Positions 11,289 through 61,200 of a stretch of DNA of 64,000 nt are shown piece after piece. Location: positions 128,822 through 192,821 of the forward strand of contig JACQBA010000013.1 in NCBI GenBank assembly GCA_016194745.1. The letters are read 5' to 3'. How positions within the stretch are numbered: position 1 is the first letter of the stretch; each line of letters starts with the position of its first letter. The position numbers and the translations under genes are program-made. This DNA comes from Elusimicrobiota bacterium (lineage in GTDB: Bacteria; Elusimicrobiota; Elusimicrobia; UBA1565; JACRDR01). Under the pieces are notes generated by a model. That model saw only the letters and a list, made by a program, of their open reading frames with translations. It ran no database searches and had not been told where the DNA came from.

Positions 11289-12962
11289 CTACCTCCTCAT
11301 CATGGGGATCTTGATCCGCCCCGCCTTCGCTGCGGCGACCGCCTCGTCGTAGCCTGCGTCGACATGCCGCGCGACGCCGATGCCCGGGTCGTTCGTCAGC
11401 ACCCTTTCGATGCGGGCGTCCATCGCCTTCGTCCCGTCGGCCACGGTGACCTGGCCCGCGTGAAGCGAGTATCCGATCCCCACTCCGCCCCCGTGGTGGA
11501 AGCTGACCCAGGAAGCTCCGGACGCCGTGTTCAGGAGCGCGTTGAGGATCGCCCAGTCCGCCACCGCGTCCGTGCCGTCCTTCATGGCCTCCGTCTCGCG
11601 GTAAGGGCTCGCGACGGAACCGCAGTCCAAGTGGTCGCGTCCGATAACGACCGGCGCGGAGACCTTGCCCGAGCGGACGAGCTCGTTGATGCGCAGCCCC
11701 ATCCGGTCGCGCTCGCCGTAGCCGAGCCAGCAGATGCGCGCGGGCAGGCCCTGAAAGCGGACCTTCTTGCGCGCCAAGTCGATCCAGCGCTTGAGCGACT
11801 GATTCTGCGGGAACTGCTTGAGCACCTCGTCGTCGATGGTCGCGATGTCTTTCGCGTCGCCCGACAGGACCGCCCAACGGAAGGGGCCTTTCCCCTCACA
11901 GAACAACGGCCGGATGAAGGCGGGGACGAAGCCGGGGAAGGCGAAGGCGTCCGCGACGCCGGCTTCCTTGGCCATGGCGCGGATGTTGTTGCCGTAGTCG
12001 AACGTGCAGGCGCCTTGACGCATCAGCTCGAGCATGCCCTTCACGTGAACGGCCATCGACTCCATCGAGCGCCGAACGTACTCCTTGGGGTCCTTCGCCC
12101 GGAGCTCCGCCGCACCGTCGAGGCTCAGCCCGCGAGGCACGTAGCCGTTCAACGGATCGTGAGCCGACGTCTGATCGGTCAGCAGATCGATCTCGACCCT
12201 TCGCTTGGCCAGCTCCGGGACGACGTCCGCGCAGTTGCCCACGAGGCCGACCGAGAGCGGCATGCGGCGCTTCTTCGCGTCGAGGACGAGTTCGAGCGCC
12301 TTTTCCAGCGACGTCTCCGCGCGGTCGAGGTAGCCGGTCTTGAGCCGCTTGTCGATGCGCGAAGGGTCGGCGTCGACGCCGAGAAAGGCGGCCCCGTTCA
12401 TCGTCGCCGCGAGCGGCTGCGCCCCGCCCATGCCGCCTAGGCCTCCGCTCACGACGAGGCGCCCCTCGAGCGTCCCGCCGAACTTCTGGCGCGCGGCCTC
12501 GGCGAACGTCTCGTAGGTGCCCTGGAGGATGCCCTGGGTGCCGATGTAGATCCACGAGCCCGCGGTCATCTGCCCGTACATCATGAGCCCCTTTTTCTCG
12601 AGCTCGTCGAAGACCTCCCACGTGGCCCATTTCCCGACGAGATTGGAGTTGGCGATGAGGACCCGAGGGGAGTGCTCGTGGGTGCGGAACACGCCGACGG
12701 GCTTGCCCGACTGGACGAGCAGCGTCTCGTCGTTCTCGAGCGACTCCAAGCTCGCGACGATGGCGTGGAACGCCTCCCAATTGCGCGCCGCTTTCCCCCG
12801 GCCCCCGTAGACGACGAGGTCCTGCGGCCGCTCCGCCACCTCGGGATCGAGGTTGTTCATGAGCATCCGCAGCGCGGCTTCCTGCTGCCAGCCCTTGCAC
12901 CGGAGAGCGCTCCCGCGCGGGGCGCGCACGACCTCCTGCGCGGCCGTGGTCACGAGAGACAT
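11289..12962 (-). CDS. hutU: urocanate hydratase
   Basis: 557 aa starting [20 protein letters not shown]-binding [13 protein letters not shown] motif; conserved along its length with urocanases. The ORF-track ORF 11289..14498 (1069 aa) extends upstream in-frame through the antisense of hutH, so only the C-terminal 557 codons are called. The start overlaps the hutH stop. Confidence 0.9.
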
Positions 12963-14476
12963 TCCTCGACGCGGAAGTCCCCGGCGAGCACCGCCGCCGA
13001 CACCGCCTCGATCGAGGCGTGGAGGGACGCGTCCCCCTCGAGCCTCGGCGCGACGGCACGCAGGCGCCCGAGGGCGCCGGCGACTCCCGTCCCCGGCTTG
13101 AGGGGCGCGTGCATCTCGACGCCCTTGCCCGCCGCCAGGAACTCGATCGCGACGACGTGCGAGACGTGCTCGATGATCTTGGAGAGCTTGAGCGCGGCGC
13201 CCATCCCCATGCTGACGAAATCTTCCTTCTCGGCGGAGGTGGGGATCGAGTCGACGGACGCCGGGTGCGCGAGTCCCTTGTTCTCCGACGCGAGCGCGGC
13301 GGCCACGACCTGCGGGATCATGAAGCCGGACTCGAGCCCCGGGTTTTCGGCTAGGAACGGCGGGAGCGCGTGCACCCCCGAGACGAGCTGCGCGATGCGC
13401 CGTTCCGACATCGAGGCGAGGGAACACAGGGCGATTGCGGCGTAATCGAACACGAAGGCGAGGGCCTGCCCGTGGAAGTTGCCTCCGGAGATGACGCGCG
13501 ATCCGACCACGACCGGGTTGTCGGTCACCGACGCCATCTCGACGCGCACCGTCTCGGCGGCGTGAGCCAAAGCGTCGCGGACCGCCCCGTGCACCTGCGG
13601 GATGCAGCGCAGGCTGTAGGGGTCCTGCACGCGGGGATCGCCCTCGCGGTGGGACTCGCGGATCTCGCTGTCGTGGAGGAGGGACCGCAGCGTCTTCGCC
13701 GCCCACAGCTGGCCGGGATGAGGCTTGAGCTCGACGATCGCCCGTTCGTACGGGACGGGCGTTCCCTTGATGGCCTCGAGGCTCATCGCCCCCGCGGCGG
13801 TGCAGGCCTCGAGCACGGCCTCGGCGCGATGGAGGGCCAAGCCGCCGACAGCCTGCATCGCCTGGGTGCCGTTGATGAGCGACAGCCCTTCCTTGGCTTC
13901 CAATACGACGGGCCTGACGCCCGCGCGCCGCAGCGCCTCGCGGCCGTCCAAGACGGGGCCCCACGACTTCCTGGCCCCGTTCCAGATCCGCGCGCTGCCT
14001 TCGCCGATCGCGAGAAGCGCCGCGTGCGCCTGCGGGGCAAGATCCCCCGAGGCGCCGACCGAGCCCCGGCTCGGGATCACGGGCGTCACGCCGGCGTTGA
14101 TCAATCGCGCCAAGGTCTCGGCCAGCTCGACGCGGCAGCCCGAATGTCCGCGGGCCAGCTCGTTGGCGCGCAGGAAGAGTATCCCGCGCGCCTCCCCGGG
14201 AGCCAACGGCTCTCCGACGCCGCAGGCATGGCTCCTCAAGAGATTGTATTGCAGGGTCCGTACCTGATCTTGCGGAATCCGCCGCGAGGCCAGCTCTCCG
14301 AATCCGGTATTGACCCCGTAGACGGCCCCGCCCGAGGCGGTCGCCGCGCCCAGGGCCTTGCGCGCGGCGAGCACCCGGCGCTTGGCGTCGGGAGGCAGCA
14401 CGACCTTGCGGCCGAGAGTCGATACCTCGACCAAATCGCGAAGGGTGACGTCGCGTCCGAGCGGAAACGGCTTCAT
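12950..14476 (-). CDS. hutH: histidine ammonia-lyase
   Basis: 508 aa. MIO-forming Ala-Ser-Gly motif ([14 protein letters not shown]) and typical HAL N-terminus ([12 protein letters not shown]). Confidence 0.9.
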
Positions 14477-14640
14477 GAGCGAGGATGGATTCTAGCAAAA
14501 CCGGGCAGGCCGCGAGAGCAGGTCGAGACCGATAGGAAGAACCATTTCACATACGGCGATGCGGCGAAAAGGACCGCTTCTGGAGCTAATGCCTTCGCCC
14601 GACTGCCCTTAAGTCCATGGGAGGCCGCGCGGCGGCCCGC

Positions 14641-14806
14641 TATAATATCCGCAAGATGAAGCGAGGCGAGAAGCACCAGATCAATGCCGGACGGGGCTCG
14701 ACCCCTCCTGTAGTCCCGTCCGGCCGAATTGAGCAGCAGCGCGCTCGCTAGATTAGGTCCGGCCAGAATCCTACCCCTCCTGTGATTCTGGCCGGATACT
14801 TTTTTG
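14641..14806 (+). ncRNA. candidate small RNA or structured element: TATAAT box, two hairpins with identical C-rich loop 11-mer, terminal hairpin plus T-tract
   Basis: TATAAT at 14641-14646. Hairpin 1 at 14687-14723: 9-bp stem CCGGACGGG/CCCGTCCGG, loop containing ACCCCTCCTGT. Hairpin 2 at 14759-14795: 12-bp stem CCGGCCAGAATC/GATTCTGGCCGG, loop containing the same ACCCCTCCTGT. Followed by ATACTTTTTTG at 14796-14806, so it reads as an intrinsic terminator on the + strand. No protein-coding gene lies on the + strand here. Confidence 0.3.
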
Positions 14807-14817
14807 CCCGAAAAGAG

Positions 14818-15177
14818 CTATTTCGCCGAGGCCTTCTGGGCGGCGCCGAGCAGCTCGGCGATGGAGAACGGCTTCCCGAGGAACCCGGCGGCGCCGGCGG
14901 CGGTAAGATCCTGCTTGAGATTGTCCTGGGCGTTGGCCGAGATGATCAGGACCCGCGCCTTCGGGTCTAGAGCCCTCAGCGCCTTGAGCACCGTCATGCC
15001 GTCGGCCTTGGGCATCGACAGATCGAGCGTGACGAGGTCGGGCTTCGTCGATTTATAGAGGGCCAGAGCCTGGTCGAGGTCGTCGGTCTCTCCGGCGACC
15101 TCGTTGCCGGTCACGGCAAGCATATCCGAGAGCATGTTGCGCGCGATCGGGCTGTCGTCGATGATGAGAACCTTCAT
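14818..15177 (-). CDS. CheY-like single-domain response regulator
   Basis: 119 aa. MKVLIIDDS...PDLVTLDLSMPKADG...LIISA...GFLGKPF: complete receiver domain with phospho-acceptor Asp and conserved Lys. Start overlaps the thiolase stop (ATGA). Confidence 0.85.
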   Translation of the reverse strand: MKVLIIDDSPIARNMLSDMLAVTGNEVAGETDDLDQALALYKSTKPDLVTLDLSMPKADGMTVLKALRALDPKARVLIISANAQDNLKQDLTAAGAAGFLGKPFSIAELLGAAQKASAK

Positions 15178-16319
15178 TATCGCTCCACCGCCACGGCCAC
15201 CGACTCGCCGCCGCCGAGGCAGATCGCCGCGATGCCGCGCTTCAAGTTCTTCTGCTTCATGGCGTTAAGGAGCGTGACGAGGATGCGCGTCCCGCTGGCG
15301 CCGATGGGATGTCCGAGCGCGACCGCGCCGCCGTACACGTTCACCTTATCGCGCGGGATGCCGACCATCTTCATCGTCGCGAGCGTCACCACCGAGAACG
15401 CCTCGTTGATCTCGAAAAGGTCGACCTCGTCCGTCTTCCAGCCCACCTTCTCGAGCAGTTTCACGATCGCGCCCGCGGGAGCCGTGGTGAACCACTGCGG
15501 CTCCTGGCTGAACGTGGCCCAGCCCTTGATCGTGGCGAGGATCGGCCTGCCCGCGGCCGCCTTCGCCGAGGCCAGCACGATGGCCGCGGCGCCGTCGTCG
15601 ATTTTTGACGCGTTGGCCGCGGTGATCGTGCCGCCGGGCTTGAAGGCGGGCTTGAGCTTCGGGATTTTGTCGAACGCGCCGCGCTTGGGCTCTTCGTCCT
15701 CCACGATGCCGTCGACCGAGACGATCTCGGCGGCGAGGGCGCCGGAGGACTGGGCCGCCTGAGCGCGCTTGTAGGATTCGATCGCGTACTCGTCCTGCTG
15801 CTCACGCGAGATCGAGTGCGTCTCCGCGCAAAGCTCGCCGCAGTCGCCCATGTGGACGTTGCCGTAGGGGTCCCAAAGACCGTCGCGGATGATCGAGTCC
15901 ACAAGCTGCCCGTGCCCCATCCGATAGCCGCCGCGAGCCTTGTCCAAGACGAAGGGCGCCTTGCTCATCGATTCCATGCCGCCCGCCACGGCGATCTTGG
16001 AGTCTCCGAGCTGGATCGACTGCGCCGCCATCATGACGGCCTTCATCCCGGAGCCGCAGACCTTGTTGACCGTCGTCGCGCCGGCGGAAGCCGGGACCTT
16101 GGCGTAGATCATCGCTTGACGGGCGGGGGCCTGCCCGATGCCCGCCGAAATGACGTTGCCCATCACGACCTCGTTGACCTCCTCCGGCTTGACCCCAGCG
16201 CGCTCGAGGGCGCCGGCGATGGCCTTCGCGCCGAGCTGCGGCGCCGTATAGCTGGATAAGGAGCCGTTGAGCATTCCGATCGGGGTGCGGGCGGCGCCCA
16301 AAATGACAACGTCTTCCAT
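15177..16319 (-). CDS. acetyl-CoA C-acetyltransferase (thiolase II)
   Basis: 380 aa. Active-site Cys region VNKVCGSGMKAV; C-terminal catalytic motifs NVYGGAVALGHPIGASG and AAICLGGGESVAV. Confidence 0.9.
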   Translation of the reverse strand: MEDVVILGAARTPIGMLNGSLSSYTAPQLGAKAIAGALERAGVKPEEVNEVVMGNVISAGIGQAPARQAMIYAKVPASAGATTVNKVCGSGMKAVMMAAQSIQLGDSKIAVAGGMESMSKAPFVLDKARGGYRMGHGQLVDSIIRDGLWDPYGNVHMGDCGELCAETHSISREQQDEYAIESYKRAQAAQSSGALAAEIVSVDGIVEDEEPKRGAFDKIPKLKPAFKPGGTITAANASKIDDGAAAIVLASAKAAAGRPILATIKGWATFSQEPQWFTTAPAGAIVKLLEKVGWKTDEVDLFEINEAFSVVTLATMKMVGIPRDKVNVYGGAVALGHPIGASGTRILVTLLNAMKQKNLKRGIAAICLGGGESVAVAVER

Positions 16320-20978: not shown

Positions 20979-21011
20979 TTATTCTCCTTGAAAACGCAAA
21001 TTCCTCCTGTT

Positions 21012-21974
21012 ATGCTAAATATATATATGTCGGGCAAGACCCTAGCGTTGCTGGGCGGCGCTTTCGGGGCCCCGGTGGCCCTCGTCGCGCTTCTATTGGT
21101 GATGCGGAACGCGGAATCGGTGCCCATCGCGAAATCCGAGTTCCCCATCGCGGAGGCCGCGGCGGTCCCGGCCCAAGGCCTCGCCCCCAGAACGCCGCCG
21201 CCGGCCGCGAGGACGTTCAACGCGGCAAGATCCACCCAAGACCCCAACTCGTCGTCCATGAACCTCATGCGCAAGACCCCGGCGTTCGCCGCCGATCCCT
21301 CGGGCGAAGCCTCCGTCACGCCGGAGCCGCGGACGGCGCCCCCGAGACCCGCTCCTACGACCGTCGCTCCGGGAAGAGTGCAGCCGTCGAGGGCGTCGAC
21401 CGATCCGCGCGAGCTCGACCTCGCGGCGGACGACTCCTCCCAACGGCGCCTGTCTCCGATGAAAGGATCGAACTTCTCCAGCTTCTCGTTCTCGGGGCGC
21501 AAGCCGAGCGGCTTCGGCGATCCCGGCGGCTCCAGTTTCCGAGACAAGAAGGGCGGCGGCCGCGACCGGGGAAGCTCGGGCTTTCAAGATTCGAGCCTCA
21601 CGAAGCAGGTCAAAAGCAAGCCGCAGAGCGGCATTACTCCCGCACAGGCAAAGCTGGCTAAGGACATGGGAATTACGCCGGAGATGATGCAGCGGATTCA
21701 GTCGGATCCGGCCCTGCGCAAGCAGATGATGGATAAGGCCAAGCGCAATCCCGCGTTCCGCAAGCAGTTCAAGGACATGCAGTCGACGATGGAGGGCAAG
21801 GTCGACAAGAACGCGTTCCAGGCGCCGGTGACGAACACGGCTCCGGCCCCCAACGGCCCCGTCTCGGGCACTCGTCCAGGGCTCGTGGACCCCAACGCCA
21901 TCCAATCAACGCCGCGCGAGACGATGCGCAAGCGCCAGGACGGCGGCGCGCCCATCCTCACCAACGACGAATAA
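21012..21974 (+). CDS. hypothetical low-complexity Pro/Ser/Ala-rich protein with N-terminal TM segment
   Basis: Start chosen at ATG 21012 (or 21027) before the hydrophobic stretch MSGKTLALLGGAFGAPVALVALLLV; the ORF-track ORF begins earlier at 20823 inside ccdA. C-terminus has the repeated motif DPALRKQMMDKAKRNPAFRKQFKDMQ. No family recognised. Confidence 0.4.
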   Translation: MLNIYMSGKTLALLGGAFGAPVALVALLLVMRNAESVPIAKSEFPIAEAAAVPAQGLAPRTPPPAARTFNAARSTQDPNSSSMNLMRKTPAFAADPSGEASVTPEPRTAPPRPAPTTVAPGRVQPSRASTDPRELDLAADDSSQRRLSPMKGSNFSSFSFSGRKPSGFGDPGGSSFRDKKGGGRDRGSSGFQDSSLTKQVKSKPQSGITPAQAKLAKDMGITPEMMQRIQSDPALRKQMMDKAKRNPAFRKQFKDMQSTMEGKVDKNAFQAPVTNTAPAPNGPVSGTRPGLVDPNAIQSTPRETMRKRQDGGAPILTNDE

Positions 21975-40499: not shown

Positions 40500-40533
40500 C
40501 CATCCATTATAGCCTTTGACGCGGGATCGGACG

Positions 40534-46813: not shown

Positions 46814-47003
46814 GATCTCCTGCCCCCCGGATGAACGACATGACGAAGGAGATGTCGCAGCCCTCCTGCGATGTCTTGCGAAATGCTCCTTCCTACGAGA
46901 CCAGGATATCGCCAAGGTCGGGGCTCGCCCAGGCCGAAAGGACCCAGTCCCGCGCAGGGCTAAGGGAGGAGGATATTCGCGGGTGCTCTCGTCGAGGTCC
47001 GCG

Positions 47004-49239: not shown

Positions 49240-52200
49240 CTAACGACCGGCGTCGTCCGGCTCGCCGGCGCGCGGCAAAACCCGGCGCGACACGATCTTG
49301 ATGCCTGTCTTGGAAGAGGCCTTCGGCGCGCGCGCGCGGTGCTCTGCGCCGGAGGCGGCCACGGGCTGAGCGCCCTTCTGCGTCGCGGCGTTCTCCAGTC
49401 TTTTGACCTTGAAGTGAGCCCAGAATGTGCCCATGAGGAATACCGCAGAGACGCCGGCTCCCGCCGTGAACTGGAGGGCGCTGATCGCGCCGTTGCTCAA
49501 CAAGAATCCGAAAACCGGGATGCTCGAGGCGCTTCCGTAGAGGCTTCCCAACAGCAGCATCCGCTTTTTCTCAATGAGCGACTGCGGTATGGCGGCCAGG
49601 TTGCCGGAAGCACCCAAGAGCTGACTGCGGATGTCGATCCCCTCGATGGTTTCTCGATGGAAATACATCTGGCCGAAAAGCGCGGGGAGCCCGTAAAACA
49701 TCATCACGATCCGGTTCACCGTGACGATATTGTCCCAGCGCAGCGCCTTCCGCCAGCGCGAGACCTCCGAATCTCCGGTGCGGCTCCAGAGCATCGCCCC
49801 GCCCACCGCCAGTGCGGCGAGTCCGGGCAGAAACGAAGCGTTTCCATCCACGAGGAACGCAAGGCCTTGACCGAGCGCAGCGAAGCCCGTCAACTCCGTC
49901 GCGCGCACGATCTGATTCCAACGGCGCTCGCTCATCCATCCCCTTTCCTTTAAGAAGTAAGCCGCGACGTTTGTCACCTGCAGCCCGACCACCGGCACGG
50001 CCGCGACCATCGCCCAGGCCGGCATGATGAGCGCCGCGCCGGCCGGCGCCATCCACTGGCCGAGCCAGAGCGTTCCCACGATGAAGGAGGCCGCGACGAC
50101 AGCGGAGGCCTGCATCACCGGGCCGGCGACGGAAAGCTTGTTGATGAGGCGATCCACCCAGTTGTGCTCCTCTATCACCTTCGGCTTCTCCCTCGCGTAG
50201 TCGTGGAGCACGTGGAGGTTCACGAAATTGCCGATCACGTACGCCGCCCACGGGATCGCGGCGAGTTTCGTCACGGCGGCGGCCGTTCCCTGGTACAGCA
50301 GGTCGACGTTCGTTAGGAACTGAGGGATGTGGATTCCCATGAACGCCAGCGTTCCGCCCGCCAAGAGGATGACCGCAGCGGCGCGCCACGTCCGGATGCC
50401 AGCGGGCGCCGCGGGACGGATGCCGCCGGGCCGCGACGGCGGCTCGGGCGTGCGGCGGATGTCGTCCTTCGGCGCGGCCGGCTCCGGCTTGTCCTTCGCC
50501 GGCGTCTCGTCGAATCGCGCCCCCTTCAAACTGCGCGCGGGACCGTAGACGCGGTACGCGAGCTCGGCCAGGTCCGGCCTAGAGCGCAGGAGCGAATCGA
50601 GAGTCGAGATGCGCCGCCCCCAGTCCGACAGGATGTCGAAGTAGGCGGACGTCAGCTGCGCGAAGAGCTCATGCTCGTCCTGTTTCGCGTAGGTCCCGAG
50701 CATGTCCTTGGCCGGGATCTCCTCGGTCATCTTGAACGCGGTCTTGACCTCGTGGTCGGAGACGGGGTCCCGCGACGCGTCCTTCGCGAGCCGGTCCAGC
50801 CGAGCGAGCCGGCCGCCAGTCCGCAGGCGATCGGCGACGCCGGAGAACCGCTCCGACCACGTCGGCCGGCGCTGGCCGAAGTCCCTCTTGCCGGCCCACT
50901 CCAGAATCGGCGTCATGCCGTGCATGTGGACCATGTGTCCCAATTCGTGCACGAAGACCTCGTTCGTCTTGTAGCCCTCGTGCGTCTTCATCAGCGTCCT
51001 CTCGCTGACGACGAAGGCGTATGAGCCGTCCTCGGCCTTAAATTGGAAGGCGACCCCATCCAGGTCCCGATACAGGCGGCCGTCCTTGGTATGGACGGGA
51101 AGGTTGCGCGCGATGGTGAGATCGGTCAGACTCCACCGCTCCGGAAACACGATCGCCGTGACCCGATTCACGACCATATTCTTCAAAATGAGCGGGTCCA
51201 CCCGACGCAGCACCTCCTGCATCAGGAACCGAGCCTGCAGTAGCGCTTCCTCTTTGACGCCCCACTCCTTGCCCGTGATCCTGTCCTGAAGGATGGCGAT
51301 GTTAGCGTCGCGGTCGTACTCGGCGGCGGCGCGGCGCTCCCCGACCCATTCGCGGAGGAACGCCCCGTACTGCACCCCAACATCGCGCCGCGCGGAGCCG
51401 AGAAGCTCCATGACCCCGTCGTAGATCCTAGTCTTCGCCGGATCATTGCGGAGTTCCCTTAAGAACCGGGTTCCTACGTCGACCGGCGCCTGCTCGAGCA
51501 GGCGCACGCGCATCATCGCGGCATCCAGGATTTCGTTGCGCTCCATGATCGCGTTCGTCGGACGCTCCGCAGGGCGGTTCCACCAGATCCACATCGACTG
51601 CAGCGGCTCGGCGATCGACAGCCTTCCGTCTCGGTCCCTGACGAACTCCATCTCGTACCCTCGGCGATCGTGACGGGAGTTAGGATAGACAGAGGAATCG
51701 CCGCGCAGCCGCCCTAGGAACTCTTCCAGGTCCCTAAACGACGCGTCGGTGACGGGCCATGTCCGATCGCCGACGACCTTATCGGTCACCAGGAAGAGCC
51801 TCCCTTCCGGCGACTCCCATACGCCATGAAACTCAGGCGAAAGCCCCTCGGCCGCAATCGTCTCCGCGGTCCTCGCCTTCCGGGCGAGAGTCTGTTCCCA
51901 GCCCTCCGTCCCGAGAAAGTCCTTGTAGAACGGATGGAGCTCGACGGTCCGCCCGTCGCGAAGAACGCCTTCCAGGACGCTCCAGTCCCACCGGCTCTCG
52001 TAGCCCGTCCTCAACGTGACGCCCGTCATCCGTTCGACGGGCGCTTTCGGGACATCGTCGAACGTACGGAAAGTCCTAACGTCGCGCCGCGGACGAGGAC
52101 CGCCGCCGGTCGGACCTTCCTCCGGACGCGGCAGCATCGCCGGCAGGATGATCGACGCCGTCACGAGCCCGCCTGAAACCGTCGAATCGATGAGAGTGAG

Positions 52201-55200
52201 CGCGCCGGCCGCGCCTAGAACCAAGGCAATCCCTACGCCTCGCGATACGCGGCCGAACGTCGCGCGAGATTGCGCCGGGCGGTTCTGCGCCCCGTTCACG
52301 TACTCTGAAAGCTGAGCATGAGTGAGTCCAGTCGCCTCGGGCTTAGCCGAGACGGCCTTGTCGACCCAGACCTCGAAGCGGGCGCGATCAAGCCCGGCTA
52401 CGCCGCTGTCCCGGAGCCAATTGGCCGTCTGAAGCAGGAACCGCGCGGGAGGCTCATAGTGGCCGGACCGGTCGTTAAAGACCACGCCCTCGCCGCCCAC
52501 GACAAACTCCCCCACCCCGGCGACTTTCCGGCCGCCGGAGAGCGAGCTGTGCTTCCATTCGCGCCGGTCCGGCACGAGCCGCGCGATCCAGCGCCCGATC
52601 GCGGTCCGAGACGCCGGCGCAGGCGCGTTCATCGCCACCGCGTAGAGGCCGAGCGGATGATCGGCGCTCGGCACGAGGACGAACAGGTAGCGGCCCCTCG
52701 GGAGCTTTTGGCCCGCCGCATCGACGGGATCGCCGAACCGGTCGAAGGAGACCCGGTACGCCTTTCGCTGCGCGTCGCCCAAGCCGTATTCCCTGCCCGC
52801 GAAGAGCTTCTTGTGCATTAAATAGATGCCCTGATTTCCTTCCATGGCCCGCCACTCGAGGCGCCCGAATTCCGGCGCGCTCCGCCGCTTGCCGAACACG
52901 GGGGCGCCGGGCGCCGCCGCAGGCGCGCGGACCGCGCCCGAGGCGGACGGTTCCGAAATCCGCCGCGAGGAGAGGAGGCTCCGCACGCCTCGGACGACGG
53001 CTACGACGGCGATCGTGGCGAGCGCGGCCGCGCCGAAGTCGACCAGAAGCGACGCGTCGATGAGATGCCGGACGCCGAACTCCGCCGCATGGGCGCCGCC
53101 GATCATCTTCGGGCCAAGGAGTCCCCCGAAGGCGCCCCACGCCGCCAAGGTCGCCATGCCGCGCCACCTGCCTCCGGCGGGGCGAGGCGGCTCCGGCGCG
53201 GGCCGGCTCGTCGCCGGCGCCGAGCTCTCCGGGGCTACATGCTCCTCGGGATGCGCCATATGCACGCGACCCAGCGCCACCATGCGCTCGTAGGCCCGGC
53301 GCAGCGGCATGGGATCGACGCCTAGGAGCTTCGCGTACTCATAGATGTGCCGCGTGAAGATCGCGTTCTGCTCCGCCGGAATTTCGCTGCGATGGGGAGG
53401 CGCTTCGGTCGAGTCGAAGTCGAACGCGACCCACAGGTTCATGTTGTCGCGGCTTCGCACCGTGGAGATCCCCTCGCGGCCGGTATAGAGGCCCAGGCGT
53501 GTATTGATGATGTGGGAGAAGACGGCGTACTGAGCCGCCGACCGGAGCAGCAGCCGGTTGGCCGCGGCCTTGAACTTGGGCGAGCCGTGGTCGCCGGAAT
53601 ACTCGAGACCCATCCGGCGGAAATACGGCGCGAGGAGCTCCGGCTCGCGCAGAATCTCCGCGAGCCTTGTGGGCAAGAGCGCGCTGTAGGCCGTCAGCGT
53701 ATGCGTATCGACGATCCGGCGCGGGACAGAACCGATATGCTCCAGCGCGGCGCCGTGTCGTACGATCACGACGCCCTTCGGCGCGGCGACGCCCTTGATC
53801 TGGAATCGCTCGCGCCAAGCCCTGCCGGCGTCGGTCTCGTGCTCCACGAAAACGGGCACGCCGATCGGCTTGAAGGCGGCGGCGGGATTGATGAAAACAT
53901 CCGAATTGCCGCCGAGTTTCCGCGCCGCGCGGAGCGCCCAATCCCCGCTGCGCTCCGCCACCTGGTACGTCGCCTCCATCTCGGAGAGCTTGAGCTCCGG
54001 CGCGTGGCTCTCCTCCTGGCCGCCTCGGAACGCCTGCGTGTTGATCCTCGCGCTGGCGTCGTAGCGGAAGCCGAGCACGAGGCCATCGCGGCGCGCCTTA
54101 TCCTCCTCCGCTTTGACTCCGACTCCCTTGACGACCGTATGCCACGGCGCCGGAGGCCCGCTCGCCTTGTCTTCGGAATGCAGGGAGCGGTTGTGAGTCC
54201 TGCTGCCGACATACGGGCTAGGGTCCTGTAGCGGCACGAGGAACACGTCTTTGACGTCCGTGTTGCCCGCCGCCAGATACTCCGAGAGCGCCTTGGGATC
54301 GGCCCGCCAGAGAATCTCTCCCTTTCTACCGAGCTGATCGGAGAGCGGGATCACGTGACCGTTGCGGATCATCTCGGCAAGCCGCACCTCGTCGAAGATC
54401 CGGTCGATCCGCGCCGGGACCTTCACCGAGCCCGGGATCTCGGTCCCGATGCCCGCGTCCGGGTGGGTCGTGTCCTTGAGTGGCGGGAGGTTCGGGAACT
54501 CCGCGTCGATCGCGAGCTGCGTCAGGCGCAACAAGTTCTCGCCCGGCCGCCCCGTCATGAGCGCACGCACGTCCGACTCGAACCGGGAGGATCCCGCCAT
54601 CAATCCCGGGGCCGCCAAGACGACGTCGAGAAGCGCCGGCTCGTTCGCGGCGAGCTCTCGCGCGGCCGCGAAGGCGCGGACAGTCGCCTCGAATTGCGCT
54701 TCGCTGAGCCCGGATTTCGAAAAGCGCTCGGCGAACGCCTCGACCGACGGTTCCGCGGCGCGAGTCCACCTGTAGCGCCAACCCATATCGTCGTCCCGCA
54801 CGACCACGTCTCCGCCTACTTCGAGCCCCACCGTCGCCGAGCGAGTACGGTGGTTCGAGGGGAGCGTCTGTACGAGCTGGAGGTCCCTGAATACCCGGAG
54901 GCGCTGAGCCCGATCGAGGACGTAGACGTCACCGCGCGGATCGGAGGCGATCGAGAGAATCCGGTCGAAATGGGCGTCGTCTAGACCCGTCTCTCCGACC
55001 TTGCCGAATACCGCCACGCGCTTCAACCGGGCCTCGCGTCCGCTCTCAAGTTCGAAGACCTGGACCATGTGAGTCTCCGGCATCATCACATGGATCCGAT
55101 GCTTGCCGTCGACCACCGCGTCCGTGATCAACCCGGTCCGCTCGTTTCCGAAATCCGGCGAGGCCGCACCGATCCTCTTGAACTCCCCGCCGGACGCGGC

Positions 55201-58200
55201 GCCATCGTGGATCACCACGCTTCCGGCGCGGGAAACGACGACGATCCGTCCCTGGGAGTCGACGAACCCGGTCCGCCAGTTGCTCCGCTGGAAGTCCTTG
55301 ATCACACCCGCCGGCTTTAGCTCCGCGTCGAAGACGTCGATTTGGGCGTAATAGTTGTTCGGCACGAACAGCCGGCCGCGGCCGTCGACGAAGCCGTGGT
55401 CGCAGTGGAGGCACTCGAGCAGCGGAAGTTTCGACTTGCCGTCGGCTTCGAAGACGCGCACGCCCTTCAGCTCGGCGTCGTACCAGAACGACCGGCCCGC
55501 GCGATCCGTGGCGATGTGCTTCAGGCTCGAAAGCTTGTCGACGCGCTCGACCGGTTCGAGGCGGGACGCGCTCGCTGTCCCCTCAGGACCCTTGAGCGCC
55601 GCGCGAAGCTCGGAGGCGCGGACATCCGGGGGCTTAGCTTGGACGGTCGTCGTTTCGCGCGGTGCGACTGAGACTTCGCGATCGGCGTCTGCGCGATCCT
55701 GCGCCGCACGAGGACGAGCGGCCAGGAACAAGAATCCGCTGCGGCGGTCCACGCCCAAGAAACGTTGCCGCGAGGAACCGCGCATGCCCGGCCGCGAGAA
55801 GATCGCGGCGCCGGAGAAAGCAGTCTCCTTCGTTTCGAATCTGCCCTTGAACTGCTCCGGGCCGGCGCCGTCGCTGAACGACCAGTAGACCCCGTTGCGC
55901 GTGAGTTGGGCGTCGACCGCGGCGACGAGCTGGTCATGATCCCCTACCGGTAGCCGAGCGAACATGAGATCGGCCTTGGGCACGAGCGCTCCGGCCTCGG
56001 CAGTATGATGGACGCCGACGCCTCGCGGCGGGAAGCTCGTCATCGCTCGGTCCGGGATCACGGACACTCGGCGACGCGCGTCCCTGTAGAGAGTCCACGG
56101 ATTGAGGTACTTGAGTCCCCCGCGCAGCAGCACGTCCGGATTTCGCGCCAGCATCTCCCCCCACACGCCCACTAGGAAGCGCGGGAAGCTGGTGACCTGA
56201 CCATACGCTCCGCCCCATCCCTGGTTGCCGGGCTCGCTGACGACGATTCGGATGTCCGGACGCGCCATCAGCGGGATCGTCCACTCGTAATGGTCGTTGC
56301 CGGTGCCCGTCGCGTGGTATACCCCGTTTTGCGGGAGGAGACTGCGGTCCCGGAATATATCGTAGAGGACGCGCACGACGCCCTTGCCGGACAGGATATG
56401 CGCGTTGAAGCGCTCGACGTGGGCGTCAACGGGCCGCTGCTGCGCGTTCCCGGACTCGCTTCGTCCCGCGCGCTCGGCGCCGCGGCCGAACGCGTAGGAG
56501 AGGAGCCGCCTCGCCGCCCAGACCGCGCCGAGGGCCGCCAGGCCGAGCCCGCCGCTGACGAACCAGTCAGCGGCCACCATGGCCGGCGTCGACTCGAACC
56601 CGGCCTGCGCGACGCCGATGAATTCCCTCGCGAAGGTGAGCGCGCCGCCCGCGACGCCGAGCCACGCGAGCGCGTTCTTCGCCCGCACCGCGCGGTGCCA
56701 AACGTCCTTGTCGGTCCGAGCGGGGATATTGTCCGCGTCGAGCATGAAGTCGTCGTACATCTTGCCTTCGCCGAGGCCGTTCAGGCGGTTGATGCGGCGG
56801 CTTGCATTGCTCCACTCGGAGCTCAAGTCGACGCGGCCGCCGAAACGCGTCGCCATGAACTGCTCCGCCATTCCGAGCGGCCTCGAGAAGCGGGCTTCGA
56901 TCGAGTTGAGCAGGGCCTCGGCCGCGGGGCCCGTTCGCTGACGGAAGTAGAGATTGAGAAGCGTCGCCGGCTTGCCCTTCTCATTGAGAGCGAAGCCGCC
57001 GAAGGCGAAGCCGATCGCTCGCGTGCGGCCGGTGCCCGGGATCGGTTCCTCGACCAGGAACACAAAGGAGAGCGGGTCCCGCCACAGCATCGGCACGTGC
57101 GTCCTGCCGTCCGCCTTCCCGCTCGAGAAGCAGCAGGTCACAGCGTCGCCGAAGCGCATGAGCGGCAGGAGGTCCGCGGCCTTGTCCAAGTAGCGCAGAG
57201 TGACGGTCTTCGGCATCGTCGCCTTGCCGCCCGCGCGCGCCTTCTGGAGCTCGGCGAGCTGGCGGAACGCGTCGTTGAGCTCCCGCTCGACGCCGATCAG
57301 CCGCTCGCGCGCGAACGCGGGCACGCCCCGCTCGAACATCGTGGAGAGCAGGTATCCCAGCAAGGTCCCTGGCTCCACGGCGTTGTTCTTGCGTCCGATC
57401 TCGTCGTGGCGTTCCTCGACCCTGGCTCGGTCCTGGCCGGCGCGTTGGCGCACCTCGCGAGCGATCGCGGCGCGCTCGGAGCTGAGGCGGGCCAGGAGCG
57501 CCGCGGCGGGAGTCGCGTTGCGGTCGGACTCGAGCACGGATTGGAGCGGAAGATCGGGCAGCCCTTTCTTCACCCCGGCCTGCCAACGGGATTCCAGCCG
57601 GCGGACCGCCTGAGCGGCGAGGTCGGGGTGCTCTTCCTCGGCTCGGCGGAGCGCCGCGGCGAGCGTGGCCCCGTCCTTCGCGCGCTCGATCGCCTCCGCG
57701 GCCGACGCGTGAGCGGCGGCGCGCAGCGCCTCGACATAGGCGACGGACTTGAGCAGCGCCCCCACGGCGCCGCGGCCCAGGACCTCCCCGATCTGCTCTT
57801 CCAAGAGCCGGAGGGCTTCCGCGTCCGAGACGTCGATGCGGACCTGCCATTGCCGCTCCTCTCCCAGAGGGAACCGACCCTCGCGCAGGCGGTTGACGAT
57901 CTCCTTGGCCTTTTCGGACGAGAGACCTTGGGCCGTCAATGCGGCCTCGAGTTCACGCGCGGGACCCTCGACCCTCCAGCCCCGGCTCGCGTTGTTCAAC
58001 CGCTCCTGGAACTCGCCGAACGTGAAGTCGTGCGACAGAAACTCCACTTGGCCGCCCTTATAAAGGAAGTAGGCGACCGATTCCGCTCGGGAGGTCATGA
58101 GCCTGCTCAGCAGAGCGTCCGGGTCGCGAATGCCGGAGAGCTCCCGCCCGATCTCCGCCGCGCGGTCCAGGACGGCGGCGGGCTCTCGGCCGATGTCGAG

Positions 58201-61200
58201 CGCCGCGCCGGAGGCCGACTTCCAGGGGGCCGTTTGCAGCAGCTCGAGCATCGCCTTGTCCGGCAGGACCCGGTACCGCTCCACGACGAGCCTCAGGAGC
58301 GCGAGGTCCTGCTCCTCGAGCTTTACCTTCAGCGCATCCCTATCGCGAGAAGACAGCTCCCCGGCCTGGGCGACCACCCGGCCGCGCCGCGCGGCGAGGT
58401 ACGCGGAGAGTCCCTTCTCGACGTAGCCCGCTTGCTCGAGATTGCGGAGCAGGAGCCAGGCGACGTGGCGCGGCATCTCGGCGGAACCGAACCCGCCTTC
58501 GCCCGATGCCGCGCGGGCGAGCGCCGGAGCAGCTCCCGTCCGCGTCAGCGCATACAGGATCCGGTCGAGCGCCGCGCGCGATCCGCCCGCTGCCGCCGCG
58601 TCTGCGGCCTCGATCATCGACTCGATCGACTGCTGAGTCCCCAAGCGGACTTGGGCGTTGGTCGCCTCCTTAAGACGCCGATCGGATTGAGGCGATTTCT
58701 CGGCCAGCGCGCCGGCACGGACTTCCGCCGCGACGCGTCCCGCCAGGCTGGAGCGGTCGCTTCCGGGCGCGAGACTGCGGCCCGAGCGGAGCAGCATCCC
58801 CGCCCACGCGCGATCCGCGGCCGGAAGGGTCCGAAGCAGGGCTTCGTGCCGCTCCAGCGGGAGCCACAAGCCCAGCGCCCGGACGCCCCTCTCGTCGCGC
58901 GCGGCCGCCGACGCGGCGAAGCGCGCGGCGATCTCTCCGGTCCCGACGGCCGTCCGATCGGGCGAGAACCGGCGGAAGGCGCTCGACGCCCGCCACGCCT
59001 CTGCGGAGAGGCGCGCGGCGGCCGCTTCGTCCTTTGGATCCACCTGCGCGCCGCGCCGATACGGTTCCGGCTTTGCCGAGAGAGCCGCCTGCTCGTAGCG
59101 GGCGATCCTGGCGAAGTTCTTCGCCTGGCTTGGAGAGGTCATGGTGCGCCCGGCCGCGGCGATCGCGCGTTCGAAATAGGGCGCAGGGTCCAAGCCGGCC
59201 CGCATCGAGTAATCAGCGACGCGGAAGTAGGAGGCGGCGGCGTCGTAGTACTTGCTGTTCTTGGACCCATGGTCCGTATTCGGCATCAGCCCGGCGACCG
59301 AGCGGAAGGCGTCCTCGGCGCGAGCAAGCCAGTAACCCCTAGGCCGGCGGGTAGCCGCCTCGATCGCCGCCGCGGCCTGGGCGAGGAGCGGCGCGGCGTT
59401 GCGCCCCGCTTTCTGCTCGACCAGCGCCAATGCGGCGAGAGCCGCGGAGTGGTGCTCGACGGAACCTCTCTCGCGCTCCGGAATCTCCGCGGCCGACCTG
59501 ACGACGCCCGCGCGGATCTCCAGTTCGACGACGGTGCCGAAGGCGCGGTCCTTGACGATCGAATGGTGCTGGTTCTGCCACGCGCGCGCGACGCCCAGCA
59601 CGCGCGCGGCGTCGAGGCCCAAGTCCAGGTAGGCCGCCGCGAGATGCGCGTAGCTCTGGGTCCGGCCCTCGGGCGTCGGCCCGTATCCCGCTTGGTCCGA
59701 GGCGACCAAAGCCTCCGCCTCCCGGAGCGTCGCCGCCGGATCGAGCCCCTCCCTCTTTTCGGCGGCGGCCAGGCGGATCAGCGAGTCCAGCCGGTCCCGG
59801 AAGGACAGTCGCTGGATCGTACGGCGCGCCGCGTCGAAGTTGCCCGCGGCGAGCTCCGCCTCGAAGAAATCCTTGAAGACCGAGGAACGGCCCCATCCGT
59901 TCGACAGCTCACGGGGAGCCCGCTCCCGGAGCCGCTCCATCGCCTCGGCCGCGGCGAAACGGACCAAAATCGGATCGCCCCCCTCGAGTTCGGCGGCTCG
60001 GCGGTCCGGCGTCTCCGAAGGCCTCGCCGCCGACTCCGCGCCTCGAGCCATCTCCGGTCGGGCCGCCGGCCGCAGCACCCGCCTGGCCGCGGCGACAAGG
60101 CCGTAGACCGCGGCGGCCGCGACGACCCCGACCGCGAACGTCCCGGTCCAGTCGGCCGCCATCCCGCTAAAGACCTGGGCGCCGGCCGAGTCGGGCGTGA
60201 GCGCGCGGGCCAAGACCGCGAAAGCCGCGAGGACGCCCGCGCCGCGGCCCAGCTTTTGCAGCAGCGCTCCCAGCGTGCTGCCCCGCATGGCCGCGACCTG
60301 GGTGGCGAGGTCCCTCCGGGAACGGACCAGGAGTTCCACGGCGTCCTCAGGCTTCAAGTCCGAAAGAAGGTGGCGCGCGCTCCCCAACGCCTTGCTCAGC
60401 ACGTCGAATTCATCGCGGAGCGTCCCCTTGGAGGCCTCGACAAGACCGAGGAGGTTCATCAGCTTCTGCGCCGACGCGTCCTTCCCCAGGGCGATGGCCC
60501 GTACCTGTCTGATTGGGATCGAAACGTGGCGCGAACTCATCCTCGCCAGGATCGCGGCAGCTTCCGAATCGCTCGGCACTCCGATCCTCGTCTGCGCCAG
60601 CAGGCGGGCCGGGGCCGGAAGGCCGTTCAGAAGATCCTTGTAGGCGTAGAGCGCCAGGCGCAGCAGCGCGTCGCGGTCCGGCGCCGACAATCGTCCTACG
60701 AGCCCCAGGTCGATGAGGCTTATGCGTCCGTTCTTGTCGATGATCGCGTTGCCGCCGTGAAGGTCCGCGTGGAACACGCCGTCGAGCAGCACCTCCGCCA
60801 GGAACTCCCGCGCCAGGGCGCGCCGCACCTCGGCCGGTTCGTGCCCGAGCGCGCGGACCGCGGCCTCGTTGCCGACCACCGTCCCGTGGACGAGCTCCTC
60901 GACCATCACCAGGTTCCCGCCGAGGATCCTCGCCTGCGGGACGTAGAATTCGAAACTGCGTCGCGGCGACGCCGGGAGTCCCAGCGCCGCGAACACGGCC
61001 TGCGCGGCCTGGTCGAATCCGAGGCCCTCCTCTGCCTGCCGGGCGGCCACGTGGGCGCCGATCTCGATCTGATTGGCCTGTTCCTGCTTGAAGTCCAGCT
61101 CCTGCACGATCATCCTGCGGACGCGCTCCACGGTGTCGTCCGGGAGGCGGATCTTCTGGGATCGCAAGTACGCGTCCAAGGACTCGATGACCCCGCGGAG

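Follow-up and report, generated by a model that had tools for sequence, protein, structure and literature searches.

The 341-nt spacer between hutH and the gene of a CheY-like receiver, both encoded on the minus strand, may well contain an independent plus strand sRNA of about 150 nt, the loops of which would pair with AGGAGG ribosome-binding sites. Overall, the observation amounts to a credible, unproven, single-genome sRNA candidate of known design. The region had been described in the earlier note as a discrete plus strand sRNA with two anti-SD-like loops; promoter, terminator, fold asymmetry, loop accessibility and covariation all favour this description, short of proving it.

Locus and predicted features

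The candidate lies in a window of 64,000 nt (the whole stretch of DNA that was analysed; G+C 66%) from an uncultured Elusimicrobia MAG. The start of hutH at 14476 and the stop of the CheY gene at 14818, both on the minus strand, were where the earlier note had put them. CHASE2-cyclase and DUF3307 genes are also located on the minus strand of the same neighbourhood. Base for base, the region was identical in two independent Logan assemblies (L001, L002), and the candidate RNA locus is known from one organism in three assemblies. The features are given in positions of the window:

11289-12929, minus strand: hutU
12950-14476, minus strand: hutH, with its start at 14476
14489-14497, minus strand: probable extended -10 element of hutH, TGCTAGAAT, forming the left boundary of the unit and divergent from the putative sRNA promoter
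14641-14648, plus strand: putative -10 box, read as TATAAT (14641-14646) or as the overlapping TAATAT (14643-14648)
14653-14806, plus strand: predicted primary transcript of about 150 nt, its 5' end placed at 14653-14656 by the spacing from the -10 box and its 3' end in the T-tract
14656-14751, plus strand: 31-codon ORF, MKRGEKHQINAGRGSTPPVVPSGRIEQQRAR, beginning 7-9 nt after the -10 box, with a TAG stop 6 nt before hairpin H2
14660-14668 with 14740-14742 and 14744-14749, plus strand: predicted long-range helix P1 of 9 bp, enclosing hairpin H1, in both the MFE and the centroid structure
14686-14724, plus strand: hairpin module 1 (H1), 39 nt, 13 pairs including one G-U, 13-nt loop
14701-14711, plus strand: copy 1 of the loop motif ACCCCUCCUGU, with CCUCC as anti-SD core
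14757-14797 (core 14758-14796), plus strand: hairpin module 2 (H2), doubling as terminator stem, 13-14 bp, 13-nt loop
14773-14783, plus strand: copy 2 of the loop motif ACCCCUCCUGU
14800-14805, plus strand: T6 tract of the intrinsic terminator, completing H2
14818-15177, minus strand: CheY-like receiver, 119 aa, its start overlapping the thiolase stop
15177-16319, minus strand: thiolase

Paired hairpin modules

Both hairpins reported earlier are present on the plus strand, but the extents and the stems of 9 and 12 bp given for them were too small, each module spanning 39 nt with 13 pairs. In the H2 core all 13 pairs are of the Watson-Crick type, and a 14th is obtained with G14757-U14797. The identical 11-mer noticed in the two loops was recovered at 14701-14711 and 14773-14783. 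Its DNA form, ACCCCTCCTGT, has these two copies only in 64 kb with one mismatch permitted. Folding energies were -27.1 kcal/mol for H1 on the plus strand (-21.4 on the minus strand) and -25.1 kcal/mol for H2 (-23.8 on the minus strand). The loop core ACCCCUCC, which holds 6 C in each loop, was predicted to be unpaired with a probability of 0.88-1.0 in loop 1 and 0.80-1.0 in loop 2.

H1 and H2 were aligned over 39 nt without gaps, with the motif at equal offset and the CCGG...CCGG stem base common to both. Among the 13 pairs compared, six were changed on both sides, one was changed on one side (G-U vs A-U) and none was broken. The two modules differ at 13 of 26 stem positions and are identical at all 11 positions of the loop motif. 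Shifting the pairing register by 1-3 columns lowered pairing from 100% to 18-50%. The stems had been called unrelated; aligning in register and with nearly half of the pairs (6/13) replaced on both sides, they look like diverged duplicates instead, which strengthens the RNA reading. The basis of this covariation is two paralogous hairpins inside one sequence, and Watson-Crick compensation is symmetric between the strands. Compensated divergence of the stems together with an invariant loop indicates that selection has acted on a hairpin of RNA (or of a single strand) and on its loop, rather than on a site in duplex DNA.

Scored with a covariance model of the module (R1), H1 reached 58.3 bits and H2 57.3 bits, compared with 14.7 bits for the highest-scoring unrelated site of the window; no third module was found with this model in the 64-kb window.

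Fold of the two strands

The sequence 14656-14806 was folded at -72 kcal/mol (z = -5.96), and over the plus strand folds z ranged from -6.0 to -6.2, with 0/200 shuffles as stable. For the reverse complement of 14650-14810, z was -2.19 and 6/200 shuffles were equally good. H1 is 5.7 kcal/mol more stable on the plus strand than on the minus strand, in part because its G-U pair becomes a C-A mismatch on the latter. Promoter box and U-tract are confined to the plus strand of the unit. The helix P1 around H1 is a single-sequence prediction.

An antiterminator was considered and rejected. The segment GTCCGGCC is common to the 3' arm of H1 and the 5' arm of H2, but the alternative helix formed through it comprises just 8 bp, as against hairpins of -25 to -27 kcal/mol, and no plus strand protein gene, which such a switch would regulate, was found downstream of the hairpin unit.

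Putative promoter and terminator

TATAAT is present at 14641-14646 of the plus strand, as reported earlier. The hexamer is perfect and has just two occurrences on the two strands of the window; the second, at 40511 on the minus strand, is followed after 6 nt by the ATG of a 168-aa ORF. Neither a -35 element nor a TGn extension was recognisable upstream of the box at 14641, and the other apparent promoters of the genome likewise consist mostly of a -10 box alone. From the sequence we infer that the box functions as a promoter, and likewise that the unit of about 150 nt is transcribed and where its 5' end lies.

An imperfect GC palindrome, GGGAGGCCGCG/CGCGGCGGCCC (14619-14638, plus strand), occupies the expected -35 position of the putative sRNA promoter and could be an operator. 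The segment GGCAGGCCGCG at 14504-14514, near the hutH promoter, is related to this palindrome.

The canonical plus strand terminator after H2 was confirmed: a GC-rich stem of 13-14 bp is followed, after 2-3 nt, by T6, the sequence directly after H2 (14796-14806) being ATACTTTTTTG. The T6 at 14800 is the sole run of at least 6 T on the plus strand of the window. Five terminator-like sites were counted on both strands of the window, and H2 with its T6 has the longest stem of these (14 pairs). It had been missed by a standard terminator scan, the loop limit of which is 8 nt compared with the 13-nt loop of H2.

The probable hutH promoter and the minus strand

As a finding that would speak against an sRNA, the earlier note had named the possibility that the region is simply the long 5' UTR of hutH. 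This was ruled out by a conserved promoter adjoining the hutH start. The motif TTTGCTAnAAT stands 6-22 nt ahead of hutH, both in the window and at three loci of relatives (L203, L204, L211), in the form TTTGCTA(G/A)AAT(C) at 14486-14500 (minus strand) in the window, at about 9985-10000 in L203, at about 8335-8354 in L204 and at 1232-1246 in L211. The lineages sharing it have just 64-66% HutH identity, and it is probably the hutH promoter. Since the hairpins are located upstream of it, they are not part of the hutH 5' UTR, and on the minus strand they could be transcribed only by read-through from cheY. With promoters and terminator placed in this way, a divergent promoter pair results, one member of which would serve hutH on the left and the other the small unit on the right; the terminator of the unit faces the end of the thiolase-cheY operon.

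Read on the minus strand, the AT patch that contains the plus strand TATAAT gives TATTAT at 14642-14647, matching a -10 box at 5/6 positions. An additional, more distant promoter of hutH could lie here, 166 nt upstream of the gene, and the hairpins would be upstream of this promoter as well.

Were the minus strand the functional one, the hairpins would lie in 3' UTR or intercistronic RNA after cheY, where they might serve as RNA stabilisers, as a terminator without a U-tract or as protein-binding sites. The thiolase-cheY operon does read into the region on this strand, and the Watson-Crick compensatory changes are equally valid there. The minus strand loops read ACAGGAGGGGU, which mimics an SD and agrees with the ACA-GGA loop motif of CsrA type as well; both carry (U/C)ACAGGAGG. 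The CsrA SELEX consensus is RUACARGGAUGU, a lead and not a test for the minus strand reading; nothing on CsrA in the host was found in the literature. What was seen of Csr/Rsm-type features on the minus strand fell short: just two GGA sites, one per loop, whereas Csr/Rsm sponges carry many, no terminator, neither hairpin being followed by a U-tract, and no strong fold, its stability being barely above that of shuffles (z = -2.2, 6/200 as good). The mismatch that replaces the G-U pair of H1 also counts against the minus strand, as does the finding that neither loop is followed by a start codon at SD distance. Moreover, hutH is served by a promoter of its own, located downstream of the hairpins, and TATAAT and T6 on the plus strand would be left unexplained. 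The minus strand was therefore rated as rather improbable.

The small open reading frame

The AUG of the 31-codon ORF is at or adjoins the predicted transcript start, a reading that the earlier note had missed. The unit might be a leaderless small-protein gene or a dual-function RNA, with a 31-aa basic peptide as product and H2 as merely its terminator; this was considered unlikely. In its favour, the ATG at 14656 is preceded by TAATAT plus 7 nt, or by TATAAT plus 9 nt, a spacing that matches the 4-9 nt between -10 box and start ahead of ORFs of 168-422 aa in the window and in relatives, and the frame stays open for 31 codons, ending 6 nt ahead of the terminator hairpin. The coding properties argue the other way. 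The codon score of the ORF (-0.045 bits per codon) is below 98% of 31-codon windows of real genes and equals that of an antisense frame, and its GC3 is 0.71, compared with 0.85-0.9 in real genes. For a 44-aa extended form, no homologue was found among 1.84 billion representatives, and the exact peptides of both forms were absent from a collection of 15 billion proteins. A hairpin of -27 kcal/mol is located inside the ORF, and a function of the peptide alone would leave both the repeated 11-mer in the non-coding terminator loop and the stem covariation unexplained.

Hexamers resembling a -10 box were seen 4-12 nt ahead of a start, with no SD, at 1875, 14494, 24183, 28021, 29700, 40511 and 63927 of the window as well as in L203-L205. 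Sequence suggests that leaderless mRNAs are widespread in this Elusimicrobia clade, other genes of which carry strong AGGAGG SDs.

Distribution and search for homologues

The next-best HutH is about 66% identical, and the relatives compared at the thiolase-hutH junction have 64-68% identity. At this syntenic junction the hairpins were absent in all five loci inspected, the contents of which were as follows:

L205: nothing inserted
L203: a divergent AAT-family gene
L204: a gene for 242 aa of no assigned family
L211: a non-orthologous receiver, 26% identical to that of the window, with a 56-nt spacer
L210: a 52-nt spacer

Judged by these sequences, the junction is a variable slot with different content in each lineage. 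As its contents differ among the relatives and never include the hairpins, the segment of cheY plus RNA looks like a lineage-specific insertion. Beside CheY homologues (up to 63% identity) no hairpins were found either; the context there is another one, and another gene follows directly. The module was likewise not found in 80 metagenomic hutH loci (HutH up to 58% identity), in three viral contigs and a plasmid collection, or in 1.4 Mb of other loci.

A genome collection was scanned with the pattern CCCCTCCTGT N47-77 CCCCTCCTGT, which gave at least 120 matching stretches, the source genome not being among the matches listed. Among these listed matches (at least 120 genome loci), neither hairpin modules nor any similarity beyond the motif was found, and they were rejected as homologues, being either chance matches or C-rich repeats, tandem or dispersed, without relation to the element. 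Among the viral and plasmid sequences searched, L213 contains the 15-mer three times, without stems. In the genome matches L053, L060, L061, L063, L078, L095, L107 and others, repeats with CCCCTCCTGTCAT(C/T)C... as their basic motif were seen, many of which terminate in a GC hairpin; they are tandem or dispersed, occur in very different bacterial MAGs and are unrelated to the hairpin modules.

The restriction of the element to one lineage, in a slot that takes different inserts in each relative, and the failure to find homologues in any collection searched would fit hairpins without a dedicated function. Such hairpins might have arisen when a palindromic terminator was recently duplicated in place, or might be what is left of a REP-like or mobile-element hairpin that acts as DNA or ssDNA; TATAAT would then be fortuitous. 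This reading was regarded as quite improbable. Half of the stem positions have diverged and all 11 loop positions as well as 13 pairs have been kept, which is unlike neutral decay, and palindromes bound as dsDNA would be expected to conserve their arms, not their centre. Instead of the many dispersed copies of REP/BIME-like elements, two adjacent modules only were present within 64 kb, and no transposase, RAYT or reverse-transcriptase gene adjoins them. The view in the earlier note that the loops point to a functional RNA and not a repeat copy is favoured by this count of two; the stems, which it took as unrelated, look like diverged duplicates.

Proposed mechanism and targets

For the plus strand sRNA, the following mode of action is proposed. 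An independent gene, flanked by the divergent promoter of hutH on one side and by the convergent end of the thiolase-cheY operon on the other, would be transcribed into an RNA that folds into a basal helix around H1, followed by H2, which would double as intrinsic terminator. Both hairpins would expose ACCCCUCCUGU in their 13-nt loops. One or both loops would base-pair with the Shine-Dalgarno region of target mRNAs and block translation initiation, possibly also altering the stability of the target mRNA, and selectivity for targets would come from the flanking bases (A, CC, GU). The loop core CCUCCU(G) is complementary to AGGAGG-type SDs, which are used by leadered genes of the clade, including thiolase (AGGAGG), hutU (CAGGAGG) and several genes in L203-L205. 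We infer both action in trans and the anti-SD mechanism. The assignment to Hfq/ProQ-type sRNAs made in the earlier note was dropped, as nothing supports this label.

Complements of 7-8 nt of the loop were searched for in the window as targets; they occurred at about the rate expected by chance, and none stood out. The 8-nt complement ACAGGAGG was observed after an AT-rich box in the 5' region of a DsbD_TM/CcdA-like gene (20979-21030, minus strand). It is located near 21010, 30 nt before the AAGGAGA that serves as SD of this gene. The gene is a possible target, but such matches are found at chance frequency; like it, the CAGGAGG ahead of hutU is a lead only.

Combining the ORF with the loops, a bifunctional switch between translation modes was also conceived, in which the leaderless 31-aa peptide is made while the loops titrate or block AGGAGG-led mRNAs, and expression would be shifted from SD-led to leaderless genes, both of which appear common in the genome. 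If true, this would be an undescribed kind of global regulator in a phylum without known sRNAs, but it was deemed highly improbable.

Comparison with known small RNAs

With Rfam 15 families at gathering thresholds, 0 matches were obtained in the whole window. The covariance search (Infernal/Rfam) suggested in the earlier note thus yielded no family; the best Rfam alignment was a local one with ErsA / Pseudomon-1 (RF01719), which likewise has a terminator hairpin, its loop being C-rich and of the CCCUCCCC type, and UUUUGCC after it. At 15.2 bits (gathering threshold 50, E = 1.7) this similarity is at chance level and was not taken as family identity.

In design, the candidate sRNA is closest to experimentally verified RNAs of the cuckoo/CcsR family, which consist of 2-4 hairpins of 24-50 nt with variable stems and loops of 9-27 nt, all carrying CCUCCUCCC (PMC4615179). 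Members are CcsR1-4/RSs0680a-d of Rhodobacter as well as C14/A6/sm7 and alpha-r14 of Sinorhizobium (PMC4615179). Shared are adjacent hairpins, one identical anti-SD-like C/U-rich loop motif, freely varying stems, and a small stand-alone or clustered transcript with a terminator at its end; the cuckoo architecture is found here as two 39-nt hairpins with 13-nt loops and 13/26 differing stem positions. The differences are as clear. Only CCUCC is common to the loops (ACCCCUCCUGU here, CCUCCUCCC in cuckoo RNAs), the hosts are Elusimicrobiota here and Alphaproteobacteria there, and no covariance-model match was obtained even at E ≤ 10. The candidate has hutH and a CheY-like regulator as neighbours, in place of a DUF1127-type neighbour or a conserved neighbourhood, its H1 is enclosed by an extra long-range helix, and a single copy is known.

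In the 6C sRNA (B11) of Actinobacteria, two C-rich loops are the working seed on multiple mRNAs (PMC6486639). Like the candidate, it has two stem-loops with C-rich loops and belongs to high-GC genomes in which leaderless mRNAs are also common. It differs in phylum and loop sequence, no Rfam 6C match was obtained, and 6C is conserved across its phylum whereas the present RNA is known in one organism.

RsaE/RoxS and UCCC-loop sRNAs (RNAIII) of Firmicutes, summarised in PMC4615179, pair with SD regions through unpaired C-rich repeats, thereby blocking translation. The likeness lies in repeated C-rich motifs in unpaired regions, directed against G-rich SDs; no match in sequence or structure to the present RNA was found. 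The motifs of RsaE, RoxS and RNAIII are shorter (UCCC/CCCC) and their architecture is another one. By sequence and predicted structure, the candidate resembles cuckoo/CcsR, 6C and RsaE in design only and is a member of none of these families.

Elusimicrobiota are known mostly from metagenomes, and no paper on small RNAs in this phylum was found in the literature. Were the RNA real, the design of multiple hairpins, one anti-SD loop and free stems would have arisen independently in a deep-branching lineage, and would be supported as a general solution for translational repression, as in cuckoo/CcsR, 6C and RsaE. The motif and hairpin descriptor (stem of at least 10 bp and a 9-20-nt loop with CCCCUCCU, at least 2 such modules within 120 nt) would then be a handle for sRNAs of uncultured phyla. 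Practical value is limited, as no cultured host, homologues or targets are in hand.

Other observations in the window

An 11-bp hairpin at 46849-46877 has the minus strand loop CAGGAGGG, 19 nt ahead of the ATG of a 167-aa ORF, and could be an SD-sequestering structure. A giant ORF of 4890 aa with coding-type GC3 extends over 49240-63912 on the minus strand. Its sole Pfam match is an ABC1 atypical-kinase domain (residues 831-1091), and a TATTAT box is located 9 nt ahead of its GTG start.
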